This document shows, in pieces, positions 2,312 to 38,447 of a DNA stretch of 40,956 nt; position 1 is the stretch's first letter, and every line of letters begins with the position of its first letter. The stretch is taken from positions 5,324-46,279 of the forward strand of contig CAZMJM010000002.1 of NCBI GenBank assembly GCA_964566875.1, written 5' to 3'. Source of the DNA: an uncultured Candidatus Saccharibacteria bacterium. GTDB lineage: Bacteria > Patescibacteriota > Minisyncoccia > Minisyncoccales > JANBVM01. The position numbers and the translations under genes were made by a program. Under the pieces are notes generated by a model. That model was not told the origin of the DNA. It made no database searches and saw only the letters and a list, made by a program, of their open reading frames with translations.

Positions 2312-2926
2312 TTATTTTTTGAAGACGATGAATTTATATCCCAGGAAGTTCCAGGCAAATCCTGCTATGGCTGCCGCTATTCCTCCTACGCTGGCCCAGA
2401 TTTTGGGGGTCAATCCGAACTGAGGGCCTAAAGCGTTGACTACCAGGGAGGCTACTCCTACGTTTATTCCCAGACCGATAAAGGTAACGATAAAAAACTG
2501 GGCGAATTCCTTTTGTACGCCGCTCATTTCCTTCTGTTCGAAAGCCAGGAATTTATTGGCCCAGTACTTGGCAAAGGTTGCCACCAAAAAGGATATGCCC
2601 TTGGAAACGCTGAATATAAGCCCCTCCGCTTTCTGGAAGATAGTTATTAATAAATTGAGGACTCCCAAATCCAGAAGCGTAGCCAGAGCTCCTATCAGCA
2701 GGAATTTAGCCAACTGGAAGACGAAAGGAAATCTCTTTCCTATTAATTCGGCTATCCAGAGGCCGAGAACAGCCAAGACCGGCAGAGCTAAAAATAAAAT
2801 CCAGGTTAAGATCCCTATGCCAGTACCCATTACCTGATTGACGCCGGCGCTTTTGATGAGGCCTATCATAAACCAGGCCAGGACCAGTCCCGTTATGATG
2901 GCCAAAATGGTGTCTGTTTTTTTCAT
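2312..2926 (-). CDS. GtrA-family membrane protein with extra N-terminal TM helices
   Basis: Polytopic hydrophobic profile. GtrA-like motifs FAKYWANKF and WNFLGYKFIVFKK. Confidence 0.7.
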   Translation of the reverse strand: MKKTDTILAIITGLVLAWFMIGLIKSAGVNQVMGTGIGILTWILFLALPVLAVLGLWIAELIGKRFPFVFQLAKFLLIGALATLLDLGVLNLLITIFQKAEGLIFSVSKGISFLVATFAKYWANKFLAFEQKEMSGVQKEFAQFFIVTFIGLGINVGVASLVVNALGPQFGLTPKIWASVGGIAAAIAGFAWNFLGYKFIVFKK

Positions 2927-2963
2927 ATTGAATCATTTTAACACGGACAATTAAGAAATCAAC

Positions 2964-2992
2964 TTGACGGAGAGAGTCGTCTGTTGTAATTT
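2964..2992 (+). promoter_or_regulatory. Candidate sigma70-type promoter for the cysK leader
   Basis: TTGACG (2964-2969), 17-nt spacer, TAATTT (2987-2992). Confidence 0.4.
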
Positions 2993-3005
2993 GGAAAGCA
3001 GATTT

Positions 3006-3095
3006 ATGAAAAACCTAAACGCCTTTCCATTAATGGTTTGCTGCTGTTGTCAGTGTAACTGTCTCGTAAACAGGGAGGGGGTTTGGTTTAATTAA
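3006..3095 (+). CDS. Cys-rich leader peptide MKNLNAFPLMVCCCCQCNCLVNREGVWFN (29 aa, below the ORF-track cutoff)
   Basis: ATG 3006, TAA 3093-3095. Six Cys codons within eight consecutive codons (3039-3062). Lies in the leader of cysteine synthase. Confidence 0.6.
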   Translation: MKNLNAFPLMVCCCCQCNCLVNREGVWFN

Positions 3096-4003: not shown

Positions 4004-4030
4004 AAAAAAAGAGAGCAGATTAACTGCTCT
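4004..4030 (-). terminator. Intrinsic terminator of the TFB-like gene (overlaps its stop codon)
   Basis: Stem agagcag (4012-4018) / ctgctct (4024-4030), 5-nt loop. On the minus strand it is followed by T7 (complement of A7 at 4004-4010). Confidence 0.6.
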
Positions 4031-4958
4031 TCATAGTAATTATTATCTCAGGGAAAAACTTGCATATTTCCTTGTGCCTGTTCCTTAAGGTCACTTCAGT
4101 GACGTGTACAATTTCTGCAACCTCTTTCTGCGTCTTGGAAATGCCTTCACTTTCTTTGCAGATGCCGTATATCAGGCCCGCCAATACTCCGCTTGGGTCT
4201 TTTCCTACAAACTTACCGCTCTGCATTATTTCTTTAAAGGCAGGGAAAATTTTTTTCTTGATATTCATGGGTAATTCGAGTGCGGTTGCATAGCGATATA
4301 CAAAATCTTTCATATTTTCTCTGTCCTCCGCGTTAAAGAATGATTTTATCTCATCAGAAAGTACCAACTTTTGATAATCTTGGAAAATCCTTTTTTGCGT
4401 AAAACCGACAAGTTCTGACAATTCTTTAATCGGATTTTTGCCTAAATTGTTCCTGTATACAAGACAAAAGACAGCAGTAGCTAAGCATTTCCAATCTTTC
4501 CAATGGATGTTGGTGTCGACAGCTTTTTTCATTGCTTTCTTCATCTCTTTTTTGATAGCCTGGGATAGCGTAAAATGAGGATAAGCTCTCCTGATTATTT
4601 CATTTATGCAAATCGCTGCCGTCATATTGTGCTTTTCTTCCGGTGGCCTGAACCATTTTTCCGTTCTCCTTAAATTCCTTGCTTTTAAAGCGGCGGCGGG
4701 GTCTAGTTTTCTGCCAGAATCGTCCCTGTTGTTCATCCTTATTCTGGTCCCTTTACCGCCGGAATATTTCTCAACCGGAACCCTGGGATATGTGGGGTTG
4801 TCTTCGGGATAAAAGTTAACGCCTCCCTCGTGGTCAAAGCAGCGTTCTTCCAGAACGAGGCCGCAGTCCAGGCAGACAATTTCTCCGTTCTTCTCATCAT
4901 AGGTTGTATTCTTATGGGCGCATTCTGGATATTGATAATTATGATTATTAATTATCAT
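4020..4958 (-). CDS. TFIIB/TFB-like transcription factor homologue (zinc ribbon plus two cyclin-fold repeats)
   Basis: N-terminal ribbon PECAH...YDEKNGEIVCLDCGLVLEE. C-terminal GKDPSGVLAGLIYGICK...TQKEVAEIVHVTEVTLRNRHKEI closely resembles archaeal TFB (GKSPAGL...TQREVAEVARVTEVTVRNRYKEL). The first ATG at 4958 is preceded by SD AGAGGTG (complement of 4965-4971) at 6-nt spacing. The ORF-track start 4967 is GTG. Confidence 0.85.
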   Translation of the reverse strand: MIINNHNYQYPECAHKNTTYDEKNGEIVCLDCGLVLEERCFDHEGGVNFYPEDNPTYPRVPVEKYSGGKGTRIRMNNRDDSGRKLDPAAALKARNLRRTEKWFRPPEEKHNMTAAICINEIIRRAYPHFTLSQAIKKEMKKAMKKAVDTNIHWKDWKCLATAVFCLVYRNNLGKNPIKELSELVGFTQKRIFQDYQKLVLSDEIKSFFNAEDRENMKDFVYRYATALELPMNIKKKIFPAFKEIMQSGKFVGKDPSGVLAGLIYGICKESEGISKTQKEVAEIVHVTEVTLRNRHKEICKFFPEIIITMKSS

Positions 4959-5018
4959 ATCATTCACCTCTTTTTAAACGAGCTTTTTATATTCAAAATC
5001 TTAACAGAATTTCACCCT

Positions 5019-5054: not shown

Positions 5055-6467
5055 ATGAATAAATCCATGCTCAAACTGTACAACACCTTAGCCAGGAAAA
5101 AACAGGTTTTCAGGCCCATTAAACCTAAGAAGGTCAACATTTTTGTTTGCGGACCGACCGTCTATGATTTTTCTCATATTGGGCATGCAAGGACCTACAT
5201 TTCTTTTGACGTAATCGCCAAATACCTGAGGGAAAAGGGGTACGAAGTCTTTTATTTGCAGAACATTACCGACATTGACGACAAGATTATAAAAAGAGCG
5301 CGGGAAAAAAAGGTTTCCTGGAAGAGTTTGGCCAGGAAATTTGAGGAAGAATATCTCAAGGATATGAAAGTTCTTGGGGTAGACAGCGTTACCAGGTATG
5401 CCAGGGCCACCGATCACATCAAGGAAATCATTTCTCAGGTGGGGAGATTGGAGAAAAGAGGTTTTGGTTATAAGACCACCAACGGTATTTATTACGACAT
5501 AGCCCGTTTCAAAGAATATGGAAAACTCTCAGGGAGAACGGCGGTAATGGCAGAGGATTCCCTCTCGAGGATAGACGAGGGAGGGGAAAAAAGAAATGCC
5601 GGCGATTTTTGCCTGTGGAAATTCTCAAAGAAAAACGAGCCAAAGTGGAAGAGCCCCTGGGGAATGGGAAGGCCGGGTTGGCACATTGAGGATACGGCCA
5701 TTACCGAAAAGTATTTCGGGGCCCAGTATGATGTTCACGGCGGTGCCCGAGACCTGATTTTCCCGCACCATGAAGCGGAAATCAGCCAGATGGAGGCCGT
5801 TTCCGGGAAATCTCCATTGGTAAGGTACTGGCTTCACACCGGATTCCTGGTCATCGAAGGCCAGAAGATGTCAAAGTCTTTGGGTAATTTCATTACCATA
5901 AGGAAGCTCTTGAAGAGGGTATCTCCCAGAACCCTGAGGCTTTTGGTGGTAAAGACTCATTACCGCTCCCCTATTGATTTCAGCGAGAGATTACTCCTGC
6001 AGAGCAGAAAAGAAATTGAGAGGATGGATGAATTCCTGGGGAAAATAAAAAAGCTTGCTCAAGAAAAATCGGGGAAAAAGGTGAGAATGAAATTGATTAA
6101 AGATGCAGAGAAAGAATTTGACCGGGCCATGGAAGACGACCTCAATACTCCTTTGGCCGTCGCGGCAATTTTTAAAGTGATATCCGAAGGAAATAAGCTT
6201 CTGGATAAGGGCGGTCTGAATTCAATAGAATCTAAAAGGATTCTGGCCTTTTTTGAAAAAGTAGATAGAATCTTCAGCCTTGATTTGGCGAAGGTAAAAA
6301 AAATAAAAATCCCTCAAAAGATAAGGAATTTAATGTACCAGAGAGAAAGGTTAAGGCAGGATTCTCTATGGGATAAAGCTGACGACATCAGAAAAGAGAT
6401 TGAAAGAGCAGGCTACCAGATTGAGGATACGTCAGAGGGCCCCAAAATCGTTAAGCGGACGAAATAA
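5055..6467 (+). CDS. cysS: Cysteine--tRNA ligase
   Basis: HIGHAR and KMSKS motifs. MLKLYNTLARKKQVF matches the canonical CysRS N-terminus, so the second ATG at 5067 is an alternative start. Confidence 0.95.
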   Translation: MNKSMLKLYNTLARKKQVFRPIKPKKVNIFVCGPTVYDFSHIGHARTYISFDVIAKYLREKGYEVFYLQNITDIDDKIIKRAREKKVSWKSLARKFEEEYLKDMKVLGVDSVTRYARATDHIKEIISQVGRLEKRGFGYKTTNGIYYDIARFKEYGKLSGRTAVMAEDSLSRIDEGGEKRNAGDFCLWKFSKKNEPKWKSPWGMGRPGWHIEDTAITEKYFGAQYDVHGGARDLIFPHHEAEISQMEAVSGKSPLVRYWLHTGFLVIEGQKMSKSLGNFITIRKLLKRVSPRTLRLLVVKTHYRSPIDFSERLLLQSRKEIERMDEFLGKIKKLAQEKSGKKVRMKLIKDAEKEFDRAMEDDLNTPLAVAAIFKVISEGNKLLDKGGLNSIESKRILAFFEKVDRIFSLDLAKVKKIKIPQKIRNLMYQRERLRQDSLWDKADDIRKEIERAGYQIEDTSEGPKIVKRTK

Positions 6468-6468
6468 A

Positions 6469-7596
6469 TCAAGCCTTATTCTTCTTACAGGTTTCGTAAA
6501 AAGACAGTACTCTGTCTGCCACCTTTTTCCAGGAATATTCTTTTACTTCTTCTAAGCCCATTCGGGCTGTTTTATTTCTTAAAGACTTATTCTCAATAAG
6601 CAAGGATATATTTTTCGCAAGCTGGCGGAAGTTCTTGGGCTTGGCAAGGAATTTTCCGCAGGCTTTCTCCTTCAGTAGTTGGGCGTAGCCCTTGTTGGCA
6701 AAGGCTACTACCGGCGTTCCGCAGGCCATGGCTTCCAATAAGACCAGGCCGAAGCTTTCCCCGAAGATAGCTGGACTGATGAAGATATCGGCCGTTCGAT
6801 AATAAGAAGCCACCTTTCCTTCTACCTGGCCTACGAAGACGACCTCCCGGAGATGATTTTTCTTTACGTATTCCCGGCATTCCTCTTCCAGGGGGCCGGA
6901 ACCAACTATTATCAGACGGAGGTTGGAAAATTCTTTCTGTAGGATTTTTAGCGCCTTCAAAAGATATATCAATCCCTTTCTTTCTTCCATTCTTCCCACG
7001 AACAAAAGATTCGTCTTCCCGTCAAAGAATTTCTTTATTTTGGGTCCCTTGGTATTGAAACGTTCCAGATCGATTCCATTGGGGATAACGGTCTTTGGCC
7101 CGTCATATTCCTTGAAAAATTCTAAAATAAGCGGCGCTACCCCTATCACTCCGTCTATCTTCCACTGGCATATTTTATCCAGGGTATAGAGGAAGGTGGG
7201 AAAGTTTTGTATGAACTTACTGCCTTCCACGTTGGAATGGAAGGTAAGGATTTTAAGGGCGTTGTCGGCCGAAGGACTGAGGAGAATCTGGAGGGCCGAG
7301 GGGAATCCGAAGTTGTGGAAATGCAGTACGTCAAACTTTTCTTTTTTTAATGCGTCTTCCAGCGCCAGAGGGTTGAAGTTAATGTTAAAGTCGGCCTGGC
7401 TGCCTCCGAAATTGATGGGAAACGAAGTGCCCAGCAAGATGACGTCTTTGCCGTAATTCTCCGACATCTTTCTCCTGGGAACTATTATTTTTGTCTCCAC
7501 CCCCTTTTTCCTGAATTGCTGAAACAGGCCCAGGATGTGCCTTTTGACCCCCCCTGGGTTGGCAAAAGAGTGGAAAGAAACGAGGCCTATTTTCAT
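6469..7596 (-). CDS. Glycosyltransferase, GT4 (GT-B fold) family
   Basis: C-terminal ESFGLVLLEAMACGTPVVA motif and typical N-terminal GG(V/A) region. Confidence 0.85.
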   Translation of the reverse strand: MKIGLVSFHSFANPGGVKRHILGLFQQFRKKGVETKIIVPRRKMSENYGKDVILLGTSFPINFGGSQADFNINFNPLALEDALKKEKFDVLHFHNFGFPSALQILLSPSADNALKILTFHSNVEGSKFIQNFPTFLYTLDKICQWKIDGVIGVAPLILEFFKEYDGPKTVIPNGIDLERFNTKGPKIKKFFDGKTNLLFVGRMEERKGLIYLLKALKILQKEFSNLRLIIVGSGPLEEECREYVKKNHLREVVFVGQVEGKVASYYRTADIFISPAIFGESFGLVLLEAMACGTPVVAFANKGYAQLLKEKACGKFLAKPKNFRQLAKNISLLIENKSLRNKTARMGLEEVKEYSWKKVADRVLSFYETCKKNKA

Positions 7597-24496: not shown

Positions 24497-24834
24497 TCTT
24501 TTAAGAGTTTTTCGAGTTCCCACAGCGTATCTTCCGGTATGGGGGGCGCTTCCCCTTTCGGGCTGATTCCGGGATAACGCCAGGCGCTTATTATCTTAAT
24601 GTTTTTATTACCCGCCGACAGAACCTTCTGATACATCATCCATATTTCGGTGGGGTGTTTTTTGGTGCCTGCTCTCTGCATGGCGGCTACGGTCTGGGGG
24701 GCGATACCCAGTTGTTTTCTGTCAGGGTCTCTCATGACCCTTTTGACCCGGCTTTTGGATAAGCCGTAATACTTCATTTTCCTTTCCGAATGCCTGGTCC
24801 AAACTATTTTATCGGCAGGCTTTATCAGTTTCAT
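24493..24834 (-). CDS. Small protein, DUF4258-like (toxin-like fold suspected)
   Basis: IVWTRHSERKMKYYGLSKSRVKRVM resembles the DUF4258 H-x-x-x-R-x-x-x-R-G-I motif. Weak, by eye only. Confidence 0.4.
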   Translation of the reverse strand: MKLIKPADKIVWTRHSERKMKYYGLSKSRVKRVMRDPDRKQLGIAPQTVAAMQRAGTKKHPTEIWMMYQKVLSAGNKNIKIISAWRYPGISPKGEAPPIPEDTLWELEKLLKE

Positions 24835-25679
24835 TATTCTAAGAGAAGCCCTGCTTCTTCCCGCAGTTTTTCTATTTCTCTTGGCGAAATCTTCAGCCTG
24901 CTGGCCAGACTCTTGGTGGAGAATTCCAAAATATCCCGCGCCATCATTATTCTTTCTCTGGCGAAAATTTCCTTAAAGTACCTCTTGAACGAAGGGAGGA
25001 TGGTAATGGGATAGAGATTTTGTTTCTCTATCATTTTTTCCAACCCCCTCCTTGGAGGAAATTTCCAGCCCAGGAGGTCTATATCAGTGCATCTGGCGTA
25101 TCTTTTAATTTCGGAAGTGAATTTGACATTGGTAACTATCAGCGGTCTCACCTTCTGTCTCTTAAAATAGGTTCCCTTCTTTATGTCCAGGAACCTGGCG
25201 TAGCTGATCAGGCCTACTTTCAGGTCCACCCGGTTGCCGGCCTGGTGATGATATTTGCACTCAGCCAGGTGGACAACCCCGCCCTTTTTGGCGACAAAAT
25301 CTATTTCATAAGAGCCTATGCAGAAACCGGGGATTAGCTGGTTCATTTCCACTTCAAATCCGTTTCTGGTGAAGACTTCCCCTACATATTTTTCAAAGTC
25401 AAATCCGCTGGGTCCCAGCTTCCTCATGGCGTCTTTCAGGGAAAATTTGATTCCCGAACGAAAGGAGGTTCCTATGAGCCGCTGTTTTACGGAATTGAAT
25501 ATCTCCGAAGTCTCAATGCCCGGATACACCTCGCTCCTTATCTGTTCGGCGATATCCCTGGCCAATCCCTTGGAAGCGCCTATCCTGCGGCACGAATTAT
25601 AAACCTTACGAAAGGAAAATGGCTCTCTTTCTCCCCTATTGTTTATGACGTAAATCTTTTCTTCGGCCATTATAACCAT
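24834..25679 (-). CDS. ATP-cone domain fused to a PD-(D/E)xK (Mrr_cat-like) restriction-endonuclease domain
   Basis: N-terminal ATP-cone pattern (KIYVINNRGEREPFSFRKV...). Nuclease core YEIDFVAKK...VHLAECKYH. Confidence 0.78.
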   Translation of the reverse strand: MVIMAEEKIYVINNRGEREPFSFRKVYNSCRRIGASKGLARDIAEQIRSEVYPGIETSEIFNSVKQRLIGTSFRSGIKFSLKDAMRKLGPSGFDFEKYVGEVFTRNGFEVEMNQLIPGFCIGSYEIDFVAKKGGVVHLAECKYHHQAGNRVDLKVGLISYARFLDIKKGTYFKRQKVRPLIVTNVKFTSEIKRYARCTDIDLLGWKFPPRRGLEKMIEKQNLYPITILPSFKRYFKEIFARERIMMARDILEFSTKSLASRLKISPREIEKLREEAGLLLE

Positions 25680-28360: not shown

Positions 28361-28969
28361 TTACCACGTGATAAGGAATTCGTGATGTCCATCGCCTTTA
28401 TGGCTGCATTTGACTTCCTTACAATCCAGATTGTCTTTTTTCAGCACCATTTTGGCTATGGAGGCAAAGTAGCCTTCCATACACCTGCAGAAAATCGGAT
28501 GGAGATTAAATTCTTTTATTTTCATAATGATGTATCTTTTTTCTTCGTTATATTCTGCAAATTCCAGCTCTCCCTCAGTCCAATAGGTTCTCCACATCTG
28601 CTGGGCCTTTTTCATGACTTCGGGCAGAGAATATATGTATTTTGAGAAAAGCCTGACAATTAAAGATATTCTGGGGTGAAAATAGCATACGTTCCTGATT
28701 TCCTCATCACCAGAATTAAGAACCTTTTTAATGGCCAACAGAGATACCGCTCTCATACCGCCGGGAATGAATTCCATCTCCTTTATCTCCCGGTATTTTA
28801 TGGGATACCCCAGCCTTTCCCATTCCTTTTCTACTTTTTCCAGGACTTGTTTTCCCTTAGTCTTTATAATATATTCCCCGTCGTGCTTGACATTAAAACC
28901 CCTTGTTTCAAAGGAGGTGTTTTCAATCAGGCTTTTAGCTTTTGCGGGGTCGATTGTTGCTTCTGTCAT
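28361..28969 (-). CDS. H-NOX/V4R-fold (DUF2378-like) paralogue P1
   Basis: Shares the family pattern ETRG...LGYPIKY.EIKEM.F.P...HP..C...GYFAS...CKEVKC..KGD..HEF.ITW with P2-P5. Confidence 0.6.
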   Translation of the reverse strand: MTEATIDPAKAKSLIENTSFETRGFNVKHDGEYIIKTKGKQVLEKVEKEWERLGYPIKYREIKEMEFIPGGMRAVSLLAIKKVLNSGDEEIRNVCYFHPRISLIVRLFSKYIYSLPEVMKKAQQMWRTYWTEGELEFAEYNEEKRYIIMKIKEFNLHPIFCRCMEGYFASIAKMVLKKDNLDCKEVKCSHKGDGHHEFLITW

Positions 28970-28976
28970 AATTTAT

Positions 28977-29591
28977 TTACCAGTTTAATACAAATTCGTG
29001 ATATTCGTCTCCTCGAAAGACGCATTTTTCTTCCCGGCAGGTCACGGGTTTTCCAGTAATCATCTGGACTACGCTGGCGAAATATCCTATCAAATTCTGA
29101 CACTGCAGGGGATGAAGCTTGAAATTTTTGAGGCGGACAACAGCTTCTCTGTTTTCCTGGTCGAATTTCACAACCTCCAGGTCTCCGACGGTATAACTCT
29201 CCCTCCATATCTTAGGAGCTTCTCTGGCTACTATTTCCGGTGAGAAGAAGTACTTCATAAACATTCTTATCAGGAAGGATACCTTGGGTTCGAACCTTCC
29301 CATTTCCTGGAATTTTTTCGTGTCATAGTGGAAAAGTTTCTCAGCGCCGCACAGCACCAGGGCTTCCAGCCATACGGGATAAAAATCCATCGTCTTTATC
29401 TCTTTTAGTTTTATCGGGTAGCCCATATCGTTTATTTTTTTCTCCAGCTTCTCGACCCCCTCATCTCCCTCTTGTTCAAGAATAAAGTCAACCTCCCCTT
29501 TAATGGCGATCCCTCTGGCTTCCCCGGATATACTCCTCAATCCTTCAAATTCTTCTTTGGAGAATATTGGCTCTTCCATGTTATTATCCAT
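28977..29591 (-). CDS. H-NOX/V4R-fold (DUF2378-like) paralogue P2
   Basis: GEARGIAIKG, MGYPIKLKEIKTMDFYP, FMKYF, HPLQC..LIGYFASV, CREEKCVFRGDEYHEFVLNW. Confidence 0.6.
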   Translation of the reverse strand: MDNNMEEPIFSKEEFEGLRSISGEARGIAIKGEVDFILEQEGDEGVEKLEKKINDMGYPIKLKEIKTMDFYPVWLEALVLCGAEKLFHYDTKKFQEMGRFEPKVSFLIRMFMKYFFSPEIVAREAPKIWRESYTVGDLEVVKFDQENREAVVRLKNFKLHPLQCQNLIGYFASVVQMITGKPVTCREEKCVFRGDEYHEFVLNW

Positions 29592-29596
29592 TATTT

Positions 29597-30205
29597 TTAC
29601 TTTCCCCAGCTTACCAGAAATTCATGATATTCGTCTCCGCGGGACATGCATTTTCTTTCTTCGGATTTGACTTCTTTATTGACAACCATCTTAACGATGC
29701 TTATGAGATAGCCTTCAACGGTGAGACAATGGATGGGATGGAGCTCGAAGTCGTTTATCCGGACAACGATGTACCCTTTTTCTTTGTTGATTTCCGTAAC
29801 CCTCAGATTTCCTTTGGTATAATACTTTCCCCAGAACTTTGGCGCCTCTCTGGCGATGGTTTCCATGGAAACGAAATATTTCATAAACAGCCGCACTATC
29901 AGCGAAACCTTGGAATTAAACTCTCCCATCTTGATAAAATCTTCCTGCGAAAAATGGAATAATTCCTCCATCAGGAGAAAGGCGATGGCTTCCAGGCCCA
30001 CCGGATAAAAATCCATTTCCTTGATTTCCTCGTACCTGATGGGAAACCCCAATTCTGCGGCTCTTTCTTCTAATTTCGCCAGGGCCTCCTTCCCTTCTCT
30101 GTAAAGAATGTATTCCAGATCGCCCTTGATGGAAATTCCCCTTGTTTCTCCAGGAACTTTCATCAGCTCCCCGGCTTTTTCTTTTGTAAGTTTTTCAGGT
30201 TCCAT
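29597..30205 (-). CDS. H-NOX/V4R-fold (DUF2378-like) paralogue P3
   Basis: GETRGISIKG, LGFPIRYEEIKEMDFYP, FMKYF, HPIHC..VEGYL, ERKCMSRGDEYHEFLVSW. Confidence 0.6.
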   Translation of the reverse strand: MEPEKLTKEKAGELMKVPGETRGISIKGDLEYILYREGKEALAKLEERAAELGFPIRYEEIKEMDFYPVGLEAIAFLLMEELFHFSQEDFIKMGEFNSKVSLIVRLFMKYFVSMETIAREAPKFWGKYYTKGNLRVTEINKEKGYIVVRINDFELHPIHCLTVEGYLISIVKMVVNKEVKSEERKCMSRGDEYHEFLVSWGK

Positions 30206-30273: not shown

Positions 30274-31071
30274 TTAGGAATTGAGAAGTTCCAACTGGAA
30301 CTGTTTGGTCCCGATTTCGGAAAATTTATCCTTTTCAGGATAATTGTCAATCTGCGAAAGCCAATGGCGGTTGGAAAACTCCCATAATTTTTTAGCGGTC
30401 AGAAAAGCCTCCACGTAGAGCTCTTTTTTCCCGGTTTCATAGAGTTCGCATACTCCCGCAGGTTTTTCCCACTTATGGGTGCAGCCTCTTTTGTTCTTAT
30501 TTATCTTTACCTCTCCCGATTTGACCCTCCGCTCGGCGCCGCACAGCTTACAGGATTGAAATTGGTCCACCCTCATTATCCAATAGGTTTTAGCCTTCTT
30601 CCTGGCGGTCTCGTTATAAGCGTTAAAATAAGCTGCCGTCTGGATGAAATAGTCGTCCCATATTTCCCGGCTGGTTTTCAGGTCCAATATCCCCATTTTC
30701 CCGTCTATTTCCGCCAGGACATCGAGGGTCCCGCTGTAAGAATGGTCTTTACTAAAAACCCTCTTCTCTATGCCGTGCAGTTTAATCTTGTGCGACCTGA
30801 ACCAGTTTAAAAAAGCATCCACGGACGGCTTGACGTCGGCGGACGTTTTCGGGATTCTTCCCATCAGTATCGTTTCAATAATATCGTGAACGTCATTGCC
30901 CCATTCCGTAAGTTTCTTTCTTTTCCTCTGCATGGAGGCAAAGCTTGCCTGATTAGCCAGCCATCTCTCCAGGCCGGGCTTGGCGATTATCTTGCAAATC
31001 GAAGTTACCCTTGGGTACCAAAAACCCTCCACTTCATAACCGTTCTTTTTCTTAAAATAATTGGCCGACAT
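30274..31071 (-). CDS. PD-(D/E)xK nuclease, Cas4/RecB-like
   Basis: GTLDVLAEIDGKMGILDLKTS (D...D-x-K) followed by QTAAY (QxxxY). C-terminal Cys cluster CKLCG...C...C. Confidence 0.7.
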   Translation of the reverse strand: MSANYFKKKNGYEVEGFWYPRVTSICKIIAKPGLERWLANQASFASMQRKRKKLTEWGNDVHDIIETILMGRIPKTSADVKPSVDAFLNWFRSHKIKLHGIEKRVFSKDHSYSGTLDVLAEIDGKMGILDLKTSREIWDDYFIQTAAYFNAYNETARKKAKTYWIMRVDQFQSCKLCGAERRVKSGEVKINKNKRGCTHKWEKPAGVCELYETGKKELYVEAFLTAKKLWEFSNRHWLSQIDNYPEKDKFSEIGTKQFQLELLNS

Positions 31072-32352: not shown

Positions 32353-32679
32353 TCAGCGAATGGTCGTTCCCGAAGGGACCTCCCTGTCCGGCTGCAGCAG
32401 TACGGGTTCCCCGTCCACGTTAGCCGCCAGAAGCATGCCGCGGCTCTCCAGGCCGAAAATCGTTTTGGGTTCCAGGTTAGCCACCACGACAATGTCCCTT
32501 CCTATCATTTCTTCGGGCTTGTAGTATTTGGCGATGCCGGCCACCAGCTGCCTCTTTTCCCCGCCCAATTTTATCTCCAGCCGGAGAAGCTTATCGGAAC
32601 CTTCCACCCTCTGGGCGTCTGCGACCTTGGCGGTTTTCAGCTCTATTTTTTGAAAATCCTCAAAACTTACCATACTCAT
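32353..32679 (-). CDS. tRNA-binding domain protein (CsaA/EMAP-II-like OB fold)
   Basis: FEDFQKIELKTAKV.....VEGSDKLLRLEI.LG.E.RQLVAGIAKYY.PEE..G...VVVANLEPK. Confidence 0.8.
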   Translation of the reverse strand: MSMVSFEDFQKIELKTAKVADAQRVEGSDKLLRLEIKLGGEKRQLVAGIAKYYKPEEMIGRDIVVVANLEPKTIFGLESRGMLLAANVDGEPVLLQPDREVPSGTTIR

Positions 32680-33182
32680 AAGTCTTTTAGTTTATTAATG
32701 ATTAGCCTGAACCAATAGGCGTACTTTGCCGGATTTTCTCCCACGTCTTTCTCCAATTCTTTCAGGTCCATCCATTTCCATTCCGCTACCTCCTGAGGAT
32801 CTGGAGAAGGGGTCCCATCGAATTTACCGATGAAGACATGGTCGAATTCGTTTTCAATCAGGTCTCCTACCTTACTCTTATAGATAAAGCTGAAAGCCTC
32901 CTTCAGTTCGCAGGAAATACCCATCTCTTCCTTCAATCTCCTCCTGGCTTCGGAAACGATGTCGTGGTTTGGCCTCGGGTGAGAGCAGCAGGTATTGGAC
33001 CAGAGGCCAGGAGAATGATACTTGGTGTCTGCCCTCTTCTGCAGCAGTACCTCACCCTTATGATTGGAGACCAGGATAGAAAAGGAACGGTGCAGTTTTC
33101 CTTCCTTGTGAACCTGCATCTTTCCCCCCACTCCTATCTGGTGATTTTCTTCGTCAACTATGATTATTTCCTTTTTTTCCAT
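32676..33182 (-). CDS. idi: Isopentenyl-diphosphate delta-isomerase, type 1 (Nudix)
   Basis: LHRSFSILV, WSNTCCSHP (catalytic Cys), ENEFDHVF (catalytic Glu). The ATG at 33182 (MEKKEIIIVDE) lies 8 nt after the P4 stop. Confidence 0.85.
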   Translation of the reverse strand: MEKKEIIIVDEENHQIGVGGKMQVHKEGKLHRSFSILVSNHKGEVLLQKRADTKYHSPGLWSNTCCSHPRPNHDIVSEARRRLKEEMGISCELKEAFSFIYKSKVGDLIENEFDHVFIGKFDGTPSPDPQEVAEWKWMDLKELEKDVGENPAKYAYWFRLIINKLKDL

Positions 33183-33190
33183 AATCTTTT

Positions 33191-33799
33191 TTACCAGCTT
33201 ATTACAAATTCGTGGTGGCTGTCTCCCCTGTGAATGCATTTTTCTTCCCGGCATGAGGCTTCACTGCCCACCACCATCCTTACCACGCTGGCAAAGTAAC
33301 CTTCCAGGCTGATACAGTGGTCGGGATGGGCTACAAAATCTTCCAGCACCATGATTCCCCGCCTGGTCTCATTATTGATTTCCCTGACCTCAAGGTTGCC
33401 TACGGTATAATTTTTCTTCCACATTTTGGAAACCTGTTTGGCGGCCACTTCAATGGAAATAAAATACTGCATGAATACGCGTACCAGAAGAGAAGTCTTC
33501 GACTCGAATGCCCCCATCTCCCTTATCTTCTCGTCATCAAAATCAAATATCTTTCGGGCAGCAACAATGGTGGCGGTTTCCATACCTAAGGGGTAAAAAT
33601 CCATTTCCCTGATGCCCCTGTAGTCTATAGGGTGGCCCGCTTTCTTCATTGCCTCCTCCAATTCACTCAATCCCGCCTCGTTCTTTTCCTTAAGAACGAA
33701 TCTGCCGTGGCTTTTAATGGCAACTCCCCTGCTCTCTCCGGAAATTTTCATTATCTCTCCGATTTCTTTTGCCAGCTCGTTGAATTTGCTTTGTTCCAT
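33191..33799 (-). CDS. H-NOX/V4R-fold (DUF2378-like) paralogue P4
   Basis: GESRGVAIKS, AGHPIDYRGIREMDFYP, FMQYF, HPDHC..LEGYFASV, CREEKCIHRGDSHHEFVISW. Confidence 0.6.
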   Translation of the reverse strand: MEQSKFNELAKEIGEIMKISGESRGVAIKSHGRFVLKEKNEAGLSELEEAMKKAGHPIDYRGIREMDFYPLGMETATIVAARKIFDFDDEKIREMGAFESKTSLLVRVFMQYFISIEVAAKQVSKMWKKNYTVGNLEVREINNETRRGIMVLEDFVAHPDHCISLEGYFASVVRMVVGSEASCREEKCIHRGDSHHEFVISW

Positions 33800-35328: not shown

Positions 35329-35949
35329 TTAGGTGATGAATTTTTGTGTTCTTTCGATGTGCTTTATTATTACCAGAGCCAGACCTCCTGAGATTATTAT
35401 AAGTACCGAGGGATTGAATACTTCGAGATAAACGATGGACAGCCCAATGCCCACCATCCTTCCGGCTACCTGGGAAGTCATTGTCGGAAGCAGCGATTCT
35501 GATTCTTTACTTAAAGTCCTCCATCTTCCTGTCAGCCGGTCCATCAGTAGGATGGACAAGATTATTATTATCAGGGATGTGCCCAGCTCCCTCCAGTTGA
35601 GGATTAACAAGGCGCCTCCCAGGGTGGCCAGTCCCCGACCGCCGCGGAATCCAAGAAAAACGGGCCAGTTATGGCCGGCTACGACGAAAAAAACAGCTAG
35701 GGCTAAAGCTGCTTGAGAACCGGAGGTCATTTTTTGCGTCATTATAACGGCGAGCGCCCCTTTTCCCATATCCCCTATTAAAGCTAAGAGAGCCGCCTCT
35801 ATCCTTCCGGTAGCCCGGTATACGTTAGCCGTCCCTATGTTGCCCGTACCCATCTTCCGGAGGTCCTTCTTATAAAGAGAGGCGATAAACATACTGAAAG
35901 GTATAGACCCTAGAAGGTAGCTGATTGCGGTGACTATGGCAAGCGGCAT
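35329..35949 (-). CDS. plsY: Glycerol-3-phosphate acyltransferase PlsY
   Basis: YLLGSIPFS, GTGNIGTANV, HNWPVFLGFRGGRG motifs. Confidence 0.9.
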   Translation of the reverse strand: MPLAIVTAISYLLGSIPFSMFIASLYKKDLRKMGTGNIGTANVYRATGRIEAALLALIGDMGKGALAVIMTQKMTSGSQAALALAVFFVVAGHNWPVFLGFRGGRGLATLGGALLILNWRELGTSLIIIILSILLMDRLTGRWRTLSKESESLLPTMTSQVAGRMVGIGLSIVYLEVFNPSVLIIISGGLALVIIKHIERTQKFIT

Positions 35950-35956
35950 GATTGAT

Positions 35957-36112
35957 TTATTTTCCTAATTCCTTGGCTTTCTTCCTGGTCTCTATCTTCT
36001 TTAATCGCAGCATCTGTTCTCTGGCCTGATTGGCGCTTCTGTAGGTATGCTTCTTGCTCCATTTCCCTTTTTTCTTCTCAAAAAGGGTTTTTCTGAATCT
36101 TTTATAAGGCAT
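35957..36112 (-). CDS. Small basic protein MPYKRFRKTLFEKKKGKWSKKHTYRSANQAREQMLRLKKIETRKKAKELGK (51 aa, below the ORF-track cutoff)
   Basis: ATG at 36112, TAA at 35957-35959. Lys/Arg-rich. Its stop is 7 nt before the plsY start. Could be S21-like or another RNA-binding protein, not established. Confidence 0.4.
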   Translation of the reverse strand: MPYKRFRKTLFEKKKGKWSKKHTYRSANQAREQMLRLKKIETRKKAKELGK

Positions 36113-36207
36113 GTTTATTTGTTTGATAATTTATAACCCTAAAATGCTAGGAATACCAATTATAGTAATAATGCGAATTATTTTCAAGGAGAGAAGGAAA
36201 ATTTCCC

Positions 36208-36765
36208 TTATTGGCGCAGATAGGTTCCTATCAAGTCTGTCCAATCCAAGACGTGACCTTTCATCGCCGCCTCTACGTCGCTCTTTCTGGATGAGGGGTC
36301 TAAATCCAAATCCGTATCAAGAGCGTAAAGCTTGAAATGATAGTGATGGGTTCCCGAAGGCGGGCAGGGACCGATGTACTTTCTGCTGTTGGAGCTGTTG
36401 GTGCCCTGCACCGCACCCGCGGGCAGAGAATTTTCTGCAATGGTTTCAGTCCGCGGATCAATGTTCCAGACTACCCAGTGATCCCATACGCCCATCGGAG
36501 CATCGGGGTCATCTACCAGCAGAACCAATGCTTCGGCGCCTTCCGTCACCTGACTGATTGCCAAAGGAGGGTTAATATTTTCACCGTCGCAGGTAAACCT
36601 TTGCGGGATAGGCCCGTTGTTGGTGAAGACCGGGCTTGAGAGTTCCATGGTCTTTTTATCAGGTAGTTCTAAACGCGATGTTTGCCTCGACCTTTGTGAA
36701 AAGTAGCAAAGTAATAATAGGGCTGCCGCCAAAACAATCAGGAATAATTTAACGTAAACGCTCAT
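36208..36765 (-). CDS. YbhB/YbcL-family PEBP (Raf kinase inhibitor-like) protein with signal anchor
   Basis: FTCDGENINPPL, DDPDAP, WDHWVVWNI, GPCPPSGTHHYHFKLYALD. Confidence 0.85.
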   Translation of the reverse strand: MSVYVKLFLIVLAAALLLLCYFSQRSRQTSRLELPDKKTMELSSPVFTNNGPIPQRFTCDGENINPPLAISQVTEGAEALVLLVDDPDAPMGVWDHWVVWNIDPRTETIAENSLPAGAVQGTNSSNSRKYIGPCPPSGTHHYHFKLYALDTDLDLDPSSRKSDVEAAMKGHVLDWTDLIGTYLRQ

Positions 36766-37460
36766 TTCCGTTTTAACAGCCGCCCCTCCGTATCGATTTC
36801 CCCATCAATTATCCTGGTGGAAGAAATGGGTCGCCCGTCATCGGCCGCCACCCAGTCAATCCTGACGATTTCTAAAGGTTTCCTGCCTGTCTCCTTTCTT
36901 TTATCGTTTATCAATTCCGCCGTCGCCAGAGTTTCGGGAGAAACTACCATATAATCGAAATCTTCTTTTAAGGTAGGACCGAATTTATCGTCTATTTTTA
37001 TTATTCTTGCCCGTTTTCTCCACTCCTTTAAAATTTTTTCTAAAAAACCCCTACGCTCCGCAAAGGGAGAAACCCGCCTCTTTTTCAGGCTGGAGGCGAA
37101 AGAATCGGAGGTAAGGCCAATAGTAACCTCTCCCAGACTCAAAGCCTTCCTTAGAAGGGCCCTGTGGCCCTTATGCAGCGGGCTGAAAGTACCTCCCAGG
37201 ACCACTCCAGGTTTTTTACCGTACAGCCTGGGCCACCAGTAATTTCCCTGCCACAGCCCAAAAGCGATTCCTAAAACGAGTAGGGCAACGGTGAAAACGA
37301 GGTGTATCGTATACCACTGGTGCCAGGAAAATCCCAGGCCGTAAACCGCAAAATTACCAATCAGCAGCCCTGTGTACCAGATCTCCAGGGCGGCGTGCAG
37401 CAGGAACTGCATCAGAATGCCCAGAACGACGAAAGAAATGATATAAATTATCTTTTTCAT
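36762..37460 (-). CDS. Archaeal-type phosphopantetheine adenylyltransferase-like cytidylyltransferase with an N-terminal TM domain
   Basis: About 85 hydrophobic N-terminal residues, then GGTFSPLHKGHRALL (GxFxxxHxGH), IGLTSD, VVSPET, ISSTRI. Confidence 0.72.
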   Translation of the reverse strand: MKKIIYIISFVVLGILMQFLLHAALEIWYTGLLIGNFAVYGLGFSWHQWYTIHLVFTVALLVLGIAFGLWQGNYWWPRLYGKKPGVVLGGTFSPLHKGHRALLRKALSLGEVTIGLTSDSFASSLKKRRVSPFAERRGFLEKILKEWRKRARIIKIDDKFGPTLKEDFDYMVVSPETLATAELINDKRKETGRKPLEIVRIDWVAADDGRPISSTRIIDGEIDTEGRLLKRK

Positions 37461-37467
37461 TTTTTGT

Positions 37468-37848
37468 TTATTTTTTCTTTTCCACCCTCACGTTCACCTT
37501 CCGCAGATTCGTAAGAAATTCCAAACTTTCCGCCTCGTTTATTTTTCCCACTACGGTCACCGGACTGGCCGGCTTCGGTTCCTCACCCTTACTGGCCGGA
37601 GTCTGGCCGAAAAAAATGCACAGAGCATTGCCCGGGGGCCAGTAAGCCAGGTCTCCCACCGACAGTTTCAATGTCGGCTTTTCGTTGGGCTCGGCCATAT
37701 TTATGCTGAAGTAGATTTCATTCCCCCAGAAATTAGCTTCGGCCTCAATAGGCAGGATATTATAGATGTTTTTGGCGGTTTTTGTACCATTGAGAGAAGC
37801 CTCCATCTTTTTGCCGCCGACCGTGATGATTATCTTCTTCATCTTCAT
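37468..37848 (-). CDS. Cyclophilin-like fold protein (PF04126-like)
   Basis: NGTKTAKNIYNILP...WGNEIYF...VGDLAYWPPGNALCIFFG pattern. The ATG at 37848 overlaps the P5 stop as ATGA. The ORF-track start 37854 is GTG. Confidence 0.7.
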   Translation of the reverse strand: MKMKKIIITVGGKKMEASLNGTKTAKNIYNILPIEAEANFWGNEIYFSINMAEPNEKPTLKLSVGDLAYWPPGNALCIFFGQTPASKGEEPKPASPVTVVGKINEAESLEFLTNLRKVNVRVEKKK

Positions 37849-38447
37849 TCCCACTCAAATAAGAATTCGTCGTAAGGTTCCCCTTTGAGAGAGCACTTCA
37901 CTTCCCGGCACTTCCCCCTGGCTCCCACCACCATTTTGGCTACTCCTCTGAAAAATCCCCTAACTACCTGGCAGAGCAGCGGAGTAGTGTGAAATTCGGT
38001 AAGTCTGAGGGAGATATACTTTTTCTCTTCGTCGTAATCGGTCAGTTCGATTTCCCCGACGGTAAAGTATTTTCTCCAGACCTTCGGGGTTACCTCGGCC
38101 ATCCTCTTGATGGAGACGAAGTTTTTCATGAACAACTTGATAATCAAGGACATTCTGGAATTAAAATCTCCGATTTCGCAAAACTTATCATCCTGGTAGT
38201 TGAAAATTCTTTTGATGGCTAATAAAAGGATACAGTAGAAATTCAGGGGGTAAAACCCCATCACTTTCACGCCTTTGTATTTAAAAGGATATCCCAGCTT
38301 CTCCATTTCCTCTTCTATTCTTTCCAGGGAACCCTCCCCCTGTTCTTTGAGGATAAATCGGGAGTGGTTTTTCATGCTTACTCCCCTTATTTCTCCAGGA
38401 ATCTTTTTAAGCTCCTGTAATTCCTCTTGTGATATTAAAGGCGGCAT
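37845..38447 (-). CDS. H-NOX/V4R-fold (DUF2378-like) paralogue P5
   Basis: GEIRGVSMKN, LGYPFKYKGVKVMGFYP, FMKNF, TPLLC..VRGFF, CREVKCSLKGEPYDEFLFEW. Confidence 0.6.
   Translation of the reverse strand: MPPLISQEELQELKKIPGEIRGVSMKNHSRFILKEQGEGSLERIEEEMEKLGYPFKYKGVKVMGFYPLNFYCILLLAIKRIFNYQDDKFCEIGDFNSRMSLIIKLFMKNFVSIKRMAEVTPKVWRKYFTVGEIELTDYDEEKKYISLRLTEFHTTPLLCQVVRGFFRGVAKMVVGARGKCREVKCSLKGEPYDEFLFEWE

Follow-up and report, generated by a model that had tools for sequence, protein, structure and literature searches.

A V4R-type paralogue family with a predicted H-NOX-like fold in Patescibacteria and its linkage to PAS histidine kinases in related genomes

The DNA analysed here, hereafter the window, is a stretch of 40,956 nucleotides (nt) of contig CAZMJM010000002.1 (positions 5,324 to 46,279, assembly GCA_964566875.1) from an uncultured Candidatus Saccharibacteria bacterium, which carries on its minus strand, at 28361-30205, a tandem triplet of genes (P3, P2 and P1) encoding mutually similar proteins of about 200 amino acids (aa). 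Together with their paralogues these proteins make up a family which, judged by sequence, is a divergent branch of the V4R proteins, with a predicted H-NOX-like fold and a predicted zinc site, and in many related assemblies family genes lie directly upstream of a PAS histidine kinase. We consider the chances about even that they are stand-alone cytoplasmic sensors of ~23 kDa which act in trans on a histidine kinase, as H-NOX proteins do on HnoK. Patescibacteria (the Candidate Phyla Radiation, CPR) are host-dependent bacteria with tiny genomes, and very little is known of how they perceive their hosts; the family is unnamed in almost all databases, yet it probably accounts for ~2% of the genes in some genomes.

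The triplet and its paralogues

All three genes lie on the minus strand: P3 (29597-30205, 202 aa) is the first gene of the triplet, P2 (28977-29591, 204 aa), whose protein was modelled, is the middle one, and P1 (28361-28969, 202 aa) is the last, with spacers of 5 nt (P2/P3) and 7 nt (P1/P2). The open reading frame (ORF) coordinates thus agree with an earlier reading of this DNA made from its letters alone (the sequence-only reading), although gene callers start P2 at Met5, which gives a protein of 200 aa. That reading had estimated by eye a mutual identity of roughly 35-50%, and blastp returned 35.1%, 43.4% and 47.5% (E 1e-48 to 1e-70). Codon-aligned, the genes share only 52-60% of their nucleotides, which bears out the earlier judgement that the duplications are old. 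The motifs described as shared are indeed present, but the first Cys of C-x-E-x-K-C is not conserved, being Ser in P3. The triplet itself is genuine, but three copies proved to be an undercount, since two more minus-strand paralogues in the window had been missed: paralogue 4 (33191-33799, 202 aa) and paralogue 5 (37845-38447, 200 aa), found by hmmsearch with a hidden Markov model (HMM) of the triplet at E 2.5e-75 and 1.6e-69, respectively. Paralogue 6 (198 aa, 291 bits) lies ~1.5 kb past the right end of the window, at 2410-3006 of locus L052 from a second assembly of the same organism, on the strand that corresponds to the minus strand of the window, which brings the total to six family copies within ~17 kb.

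Four of the window copies have one-to-one syntenic orthologues, in the same order, in the closest metagenome-assembled genome (MAG), locus L001: P3 at 5393-6001 (84% identity, dN/dS 0.05), P2 at 5998-6615 (81%), P1 at 6624-7232 (87%, dN/dS 0.02) and paralogue 4 at 1810-2418 (76%). The identity between orthologues (76-87%) stands against 35-48% between paralogues. Non-synonymous divergence from the orthologues is low (pN 0.075-0.136) and synonymous divergence is near saturation (pS 0.67-0.74), giving dN/dS of ~0.02-0.08, below 0.1, values which are approximate as dS is saturated. Syntenic orthologues together with low pN against near-saturated pS show that the family ORFs of the window are genuine genes and that each copy is kept by purifying selection. 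The encoded proteins are soluble (grand average of hydropathy -0.28 to -0.46; isoelectric point 5.2-8.7).

Size and spread of the family

An exhaustive profile search of 1.84 billion representatives, clustered at 50% identity, recovered 299 clusters at a threshold of E<=1e-30, rising to 521 at E<=1e-10 and 1069 at E<=1e-3. The relatives listed are, nearly without exception, stand-alone proteins of 195-205 aa. P0121 (405 aa) and P0122 (410 aa) are two independent fused doublets with short linkers, and both halves of each keep the Cys/Glu/Cys/His residues of the predicted zinc site described below. Such fusions suggest a physical pairing of paralogues, of the Rosetta-stone type; an AlphaFold prediction of P0121 made without an alignment (predicted local distance difference test score, pLDDT, 38.6; predicted template modelling score, pTM, 0.24) was uninformative on pairing. 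The named relatives in the databases are Candidatus Nealsonbacteria or other Patescibacteria MAGs, and one source calls member P0098 a 'predicted hydrocarbon binding protein'.

Among species-representative genomes we recovered 50 loci from 32 assemblies; they were found with one C-terminal peptide pattern, and all locus and copy counts given here are lower bounds. Tandem arrays of 2-5 family copies on the same strand are common across these loci, and two related MAGs hold at least 16 full-length copies each. The complete Nealsonbacteria genomes among the recovered assemblies measure 0.65-0.69 Mb, and if the two MAGs have genomes of this order, about 2% of their genes belong to the family. Five loci (L017, L037, L040, L044 and L047) are on contigs binned as Aminicenantia, Gammaproteobacteria or Dehalococcoidia; four of these contigs are short (2.3-3.8 kb), that of L044 measures 57 kb, and L040 carries the typical block of family, kinase and regulator genes. 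For the short contigs, mis-binned Patescibacteria sequence is more likely than a true presence in those groups.

A divergent V4R subfamily with a predicted H-NOX-like fold

PF02830 (V4R) was the only recurrent Pfam match of the family. It was matched at E<=1 by all 42 members examined, with a best E of 8.9e-8, and by all five window proteins: P2 at E 4e-6, P3 at 1.8e-5 (residues 160-198), paralogue 5 at 4.1e-5, P1 at 4.3e-5 and paralogue 4 at 1.4e-4. The scores of the window proteins (22.3-27.3 bits) are below the 31-bit gathering score, and in each protein the match is confined to the last ~40 residues; about one third of the relatives listed carry a precomputed PF02830 assignment. The V4R affinity that had been suspected is thereby upheld, and by sequence the family appears to be a divergent V4R subfamily. 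The affinity to DUF2378 (PF09536/TIGR02265), suggested alongside it, found no such backing, as neither Pfam nor NCBIfam gave a match for the triplet at E<=10 and none of the 42 members had one at E<=1, and on these profile tests we reject membership in that family. Nor did the Pfam scans of the 42 members return XylR_N (PF06505), TRAPP (PF04051), ATC_hydrolase or any enzyme family. An XylR-type fused sensor is ruled out by the lack of an XylR_N match and by the stand-alone, ~200-aa form of the proteins, and membership in the Bet3 family by the lack of a Pfam TRAPP match and by a structural likeness that is only partial. P3 has a weak match to the C-terminus of MsvR (E 8.8e-4).

The AlphaFold2 model of P2, built from a 42-sequence alignment, reached a pLDDT of 92.4 and a pTM of 0.88. 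Its top Foldseek matches in the Protein Data Bank (PDB) were H-NOX domains over 188-200 aligned columns, among them the soluble guanylate cyclase beta1 subunit (8hbf_B, E 1e-6), Nostoc H-NOX (3tfd_B, template modelling score, TM, 0.68/0.75) and Shewanella H-NOX (4u99_A, TM 0.68/0.74), the latter two with an overall TM of 0.65-0.75 over ~190 columns. The next ranks, over ~135-170 columns, were taken by TRAPPC3/Bet3 (6aq3, E 1.3e-4, ~147 columns, TM 0.45), the V4R protein MJ1460 (2osd, E 2.9e-4; 2oso, E 4.6e-4; ~157 columns) and YslB (3njc). The model thus bears out the H-NOX-like fold that had been proposed, and the predicted structure is of the H-NOX/V4R type, in which a helical N-terminal subdomain packs against an alpha/beta C-terminal one. 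The added statement that these folds have no defined function was too strong, as phenols are ligands of the V4R sensor domains in DmpR, MopR and PoxR, and haem and NO are bound by H-NOX.

A predicted zinc site and no haem ligands

Four residues, numbered as in P2, stand out as the most conserved polar residues of the family: Cys164, Glu187, Cys190 and His198 are kept in 85, 87, 86 and 85, respectively, of 89 members and in all 27 that are kinase-linked. In P2 they lie within a segment at 28998-29102 on the minus strand (Cys164, 29100-29102; Glu187, 29031-29033; Cys190, 29022-29024; His198, 28998-29000). No significant match came from sequence searches of the PDB with 3- and 42-sequence profiles; MopR, the best of the relevant matches at E 0.12, served for residue correspondence only. 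This weak match, obtained with the 42-sequence profile, puts the four residues on Cys155, Glu178, Cys181 and Cys189 of MopR (5kbe). C155, C181 and C189 are the zinc cysteines of MopR, in a site ~10 Å from the phenol pocket that is considered structural (PMC9556785); the zinc of DmpR has Cys151, a Glu, Cys177 and Cys185 as its ligands (PMC7264223), and the zinc ligands of Shewanella H-NOX are Cys139/His161/Cys164/Cys172 (PMC7108781). The spacings are identical in the family, MopR and DmpR, with 26 residues from the first to the second Cys and 8 residues from the second Cys to the last ligand. From the alignment, the identical spacing and the conservation we strongly infer that the conserved Cys/Glu/Cys/His quartet corresponds to the zinc site of the superfamily and binds zinc. 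The proposal that the conserved Cys, Cys and His ligate a metal gains support from the same correspondence with the zinc ligands of MopR and DmpR, which adds the Glu. A few members depart from this set of ligands, paralogue 5 among them, where the alignment shows Asp instead of His at the fourth position; this protein also has Thr where the 'H-P' motif has its His.

Affiliation with the haem-binding H-NOX proteins, in contrast, was not confirmed. Conservation of the proximal His is absolute among H-NOX proteins (PMC7108781); this residue, His102/103, ligates the haem iron. No conserved His was found at family residues 90-135 among the 89 members, the maximum being 30% at position 132, in a mapping onto helix alphaF that followed only the order of secondary-structure elements. 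The only well-conserved His residues of the 89 members are at 160 (76%) and 198 (96%). The haem-propionate motif Y-x-S-x-R is absent from the family consensus, Pfam gave no HNOB match at E<=1 in any of the 42 members, nor at E<=10 in the triplet, and an hhalign comparison with Tt H-NOX, whose sequence was verified as 1u4h, gave a probability of 0.14%. Membership among the haem H-NOX proteins is rejected on these grounds.

Kinase-linked operons in relatives

When the neighbours of all loci were clustered, the two top clusters consisted of PAS histidine kinases, present at 20 loci, and response regulators, present at 14. The recurring same-strand block consists of one to five family genes, in some cases preceded by or interleaved with PAS-protein genes, followed by a kinase and two receivers. 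According to Pfam the kinases are of the type PAS-PAS-HisKA-HATPase_c (~500-530 aa), with no membrane or periplasmic sensor domain detected in those of the family loci; the regulators are one or two single receiver domains, except in L040, which has an OmpR-type regulator instead. The interleaved short ORFs encode PAS-only proteins of 160-190 aa, placed upstream of the PAS-PAS kinase at L010 239-6254, L030 4176-9071, L033 274-4299 and L034 956-5788, and this arrangement suggests a modular assembly of sensor, PAS adaptor and kinase.

Counted by a strict kinase-core HMM, 16 loci have a family gene no more than 600 nt from a same-strand kinase, 13 of them with a gap of at most 50 nt or an overlap. 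L050 adds one more, so that family genes lie directly upstream of a kinase in 17 of 32 distinct assemblies. ORFs of 290-300 aa that BLAST labelled 'HK' but that lack Pfam domains were left out of this count (L021 5087-5977; L035 4201-5112 and 5127-6005; L028 6614-7480). Kinases account for 21 of 579 crudely called genes across the loci, and ~15 of them are directly downstream of a family array; the linkage is far above chance, though the assemblies are phylogenetically dependent. In the closest MAGs (L012, L022) kinases lie 2-4 kb from the family arrays. The sequence-only reading had held that no output domain is attached and that the family is therefore a candidate for an undescribed system. 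Its first part stands, since the proteins are stand-alone, but an output is likely to be supplied in trans by the kinase and receivers encoded downstream in the 17 assemblies.

Proposed mode of action

We propose that in members of the family the Cys-Glu-Cys-His site of the C-terminal subdomain would bind a structural zinc, as in DmpR, MopR, PoxR and some H-NOX proteins, and that a small ligand, most likely hydrophobic to judge from the precedents of the fold, would be held in a cavity between the two subdomains; oxidation of the Cys pair of the zinc site may serve as the signal in place of a ligand. The sensor, acting singly, as a homodimer or as a heterodimer with a paralogue, would dock on the PAS domains of the soluble PAS-PAS-HisKA-HATPase kinase and change its autophosphorylation, and the kinase would in turn phosphorylate one or two receiver-only, CheY-like regulators. 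For docking and phosphorelay we draw on the operon structure in relatives and on the analogy with H-NOX/HnoK. The MetOD1 output domain of methanogen response regulators provides a precedent for this fold in two-component systems (PMC5847659). In the Nealsonbacteria-like lineage of the window the sensor gene was duplicated many times, which would give many input specificities that converge on few kinases, and the partner of the window triplet would be encoded elsewhere, one candidate being a kinase near paralogue 6. This is a 536-aa seven-transmembrane (7TM) histidine kinase (HisKA_7TM/HisKA/HATPase_c) on the same strand, two genes and 360 nt upstream of paralogue 6; the three genes occupy L052 442-3006, on the window's minus strand and upstream of TyrRS, in the order 7TM kinase, a 55-aa Glu/Lys-rich ORF and paralogue 6.

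A bolder form of this proposal, which we put forward with low confidence, is that the proteins are part of a lineage-specific 'split receptor', found in Patescibacteria of the Nealsonbacteria/Parcubacteria type, in which arrays of haem-less zinc H-NOX/V4R sensors and PAS-only adaptors would combine in varying sets on one or a few soluble kinases to drive CheY-like regulators, and that this would be the main route by which these minimal-genome episymbionts read host metabolites or lipids and control attachment or motility.

Several observations weigh against a role as sensors for histidine kinases. Pfam scans detected no kinase, receiver or PAS gene in the window. As for the kinase near paralogue 6, it belongs to another type (7TM), and gaps of ~100 nt and the 55-aa ORF lie between the two genes. 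Four of the five window copies, P3 among them, fall in a large clade never seen beside a kinase, and a different role is possible for them; this placement comes from a midpoint-rooted neighbour-joining (NJ) tree of 89 members without support values. In favour of the sensor role, the same tree has the kinase-linked members on deeper branches. P1 and its L001 orthologue group with kinase-linked copies of L030 and L010, the only window copy to do so, and the best non-orthologous relative of P1 is likewise kinase-linked (L021 6001-6606, 49% identity). The operon linkage could in part be inherited synteny, as TsaE and a 5'-3' exonuclease are kept directly upstream of the family-kinase-regulator block too (L021, L030-L032, L038, L042, L045, L046, L048) and the 17 assemblies are related to one another. 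Taken alone, the match to MopR is weak too. For the copies without a neighbouring kinase, the role proposed here is extrapolated from their kinase-linked relatives.

Alternative explanations

The copies that lie away from signalling genes, four of the five in the window included, could be accounted for if the proteins were carriers or buffers for hydrophobic molecules scavenged from the host (lipids, fatty acids, isoprenoids or cofactors), comparable to Bet3, with the expansion of the family reflecting the variety of cargo faced by an auxotrophic episymbiont. V4R is generally viewed as a binder of hydrophobic ligands (PMC2253512), TRAPPC3/Bet3 with its covalently attached palmitate is a significant structural match, at least 16 copies are many for pure sensors in a genome probably below 1 Mb, and paralogue 5 has genes for PlsY, a PEBP-family protein and a cytidylyltransferase as neighbours, and paralogue 4 a Nudix/IPP-isomerase-like gene. 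However, the Bet3 match covers ~147 columns where that to H-NOX is full-length, no family member matches the Pfam model of TRAPP/Bet3, the lipid-gene neighbours are not conserved at other family loci, and the tight, recurrent placement beside kinases in 17 assemblies would be left unexplained. We regard this explanation as unlikely for the family as a whole, while it is a serious rival for the unlinked clade that holds most of the window copies. The kinase operon is compatible with a thiol/zinc redox switch, in which a disulfide between the zinc cysteines would remodel or release the zinc, alter the conformation and report oxygen or oxidants in anaerobes, with no need for a ligand. The haem-free H-NOX of Vibrio cholerae senses oxidants through a homologous zinc site and then inhibits HnoK (PMC7108781), the V4R domain of MsvR gives redox-sensitive DNA binding through cysteines (PMC3729527), and both the weak MsvR match of P3 and the conservation of the site residues above all other polar residues fit with this. 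But with two Cys, a Glu and a His the site is nearer to the structural site of MopR (PMC9556785) than to a Cys3/Cys4 redox site, paralogue 5 and a few other members vary its ligands, and one shared stimulus does not explain why 6 to at least 16 diverged paralogues persist under purifying selection; we consider such a switch quite unlikely.

Less can be said for two further explanations. V4R is named after BchJ and ATC hydrolase has the Cys cluster of the superfamily (PMC5847659), which would fit enzymes of a BchJ-like or ATC-hydrolase-like kind acting through that cluster, and the tandem paralogues and two doublet fusions would fit a TRAPP-like hetero-oligomeric scaffold of paralogues, as dimers are formed in the Bet3 family (PMC2253512). 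We judge either improbable: the Pfam scans found neither ATC_hydrolase nor any other enzyme family, there are no conserved metabolic neighbours, the metal site accounts for the conserved polar residues, and oligomers are equally expected of sensors, the sensor domains of DmpR being dimeric (PMC7264223). Gas sensors for NO or O2 of the true, haem-binding H-NOX kind would agree with the best and fullest structural matches and with a kinase-adjacent arrangement that mirrors hnoX-hnoK, but the segment at residues 90-135 holds no conserved His where all H-NOX proteins keep the proximal one (PMC7108781), and together with the missing Y-x-S-x-R motif, the lack of an HNOB match and the hhalign result this makes them highly improbable.

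Relation to known systems

With V4R proteins such as MJ1460 (PF02830/COG1719, 'predicted hydrocarbon-binding protein') the family shares sequence affinity, size, stand-alone form and the alpha/beta core. It differs in that its V4R match is sub-threshold and covers the last ~40 residues only, that its N-terminal helical subdomain is more H-NOX-like, and that it is kinase-linked and restricted, as far as seen, to Patescibacteria MAGs. The XylR_N-V4R sensor domains of DmpR, MopR, PoxR and XylR, which are sigma-54 activators, have the same Cys-22-Glu-2-Cys-7-Cys/His ligand spacing and a size of ~200 aa, and in their case bind a small ligand, and Trp128 of DmpR, a strictly conserved Trp upstream of the zinc site, corresponds to Trp129 of the family (86 of 89 members). 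The family, however, is unfused to an AAA+/DNA-binding module and lacks a match to XylR_N; its fourth ligand is His where DmpR and MopR have Cys, no counterpart of their phenol-positioning His was identified, and the sequence match to MopR stays at E 0.12.

The hnoX-hnoK pairs of Shewanella and Vibrio offer the nearest likeness in arrangement, with stand-alone sensors of ~190-200 aa adjoining a histidine kinase with separate receivers; H-NOX is the best full-length structural match, and many H-NOX proteins have a homologous zinc site (PMC7108781). In contrast to these pairs, the family lacks haem ligands and an HNOB match, its kinase has two PAS domains and is accompanied by extra PAS-only proteins, its genes form arrays of 1-5 with up to at least 16 copies per genome, and kinase adjacency is seen in 17 of 32 relatives' assemblies and not at the window triplet. 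The pairing of the family with PAS recalls the H-NOX-PAS arrangement of soluble guanylate cyclase. MetOD1 combines an H-NOX-like secondary structure with a V4R-type Cys cluster in a two-component setting (PMC5847659); going by its description it is set apart as an archaeal, receiver-fused output domain with three Cys, whereas the family is bacterial and stand-alone, a presumed input, with Cys/Glu/Cys/His. Bet3/TRAPPC3 resembles the family in its alpha/beta core and in belonging to paralogue families that form homo- and heterodimers (PMC2253512), but the match is partial (~147 columns, TM 0.45) and has no counterpart in a Pfam TRAPP match. The family also stands apart in setting, for Bet3 is eukaryotic or Asgard, acts in vesicle tethering and buries a palmitoyl chain.

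Stand-alone V4R proteins, the V4R zinc site and H-NOX-type sensor-kinase operons are already known. Neither this Patescibacteria family nor an operon of a stand-alone V4R gene and a kinase was described in the literature that our searches brought up, and we found no account, for this family, of a full-length H-NOX-like fold without haem ligands, of linkage to PAS kinases and PAS-only proteins or of an expansion to at least 16 copies in minimal genomes. If the proposed sensor role is true, the detachable-sensor and kinase logic of H-NOX/HnoK would extend to a haem-less V4R branch, stand-alone V4R proteins, which have lacked an assigned function since 2001, would be tied to two-component signalling, and an uncultivated phylum would gain, in this family, candidate receptors for signals from its hosts. 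If the proteins are carriers instead, they would bear on how lipid-auxotrophic CPR bacteria handle scavenged hydrophobic molecules.

Surroundings of the triplet and other genes of the window

Directly upstream of the triplet lies an ORF of 265 aa (30274-31071, minus strand) with no Pfam match, which is kept beside family arrays in L001, L002, L009 and L012 together with a metallo-beta-lactamase (MBL)-fold hydrolase; a SIMPL protein is also encoded downstream in some of these loci. A weak candidate promoter (TTGACA-16-TAAATT, 30323-30350, minus strand, 10/12 match to consensus) lies upstream of the triplet, inside the 3' end of the preceding gene. Around the triplet neither promoter-like sites (10 against 5.0 +/- 2.4 in shuffled sequences) nor terminator-like sites (7 against 5.3) were clearly in excess of the shuffles, and the candidate promoter is only suggestive; the same terminator scan found none after P1 on the minus strand.

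As a whole the window is a typical segment of a small Patescibacteria genome, with, among others, genes for DnaX, DnaB, RecR, CysRS, TyrRS, PBP2, MraW/MraZ, ClpB, RlmN, PlsY, DUF5667 and SIMPL proteins, and nearly all genes in its 10-41 kb part are on the minus strand. Lipid and isoprenoid genes (PlsY, PEBP-family, cytidylyltransferase and Nudix/IPP-isomerase-like) at 35329-37460 and 32676-33254, both on the minus strand, adjoin paralogues 5 and 4, an association that does not recur at other family loci. In its longest form the Nudix ORF shares 64 nt with paralogue 4, and because of this overlap its true start is probably further downstream. For a 315-aa protein encoded at 4020-4967 (minus strand), Pfam gave two matches above its cut-offs, one to the TFIIB repeat (PF00382) at E 2.2e-15 and one to the TFIIB zinc ribbon (PF08271) at E 2.1e-9. 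Since Nealsonbacteria are reported ectosymbionts of methanogens, this TFB-like gene, of archaeal/eukaryotic type in an otherwise bacterial window, may have been acquired from an archaeal host. Finally, a 281-aa protein encoded at 24834-25679 (minus strand) combines an ATP-cone, an Mrr-type restriction-endonuclease core and an AF1548-like C-terminal domain, an unusual architecture for a nucleotide-sensing nuclease.

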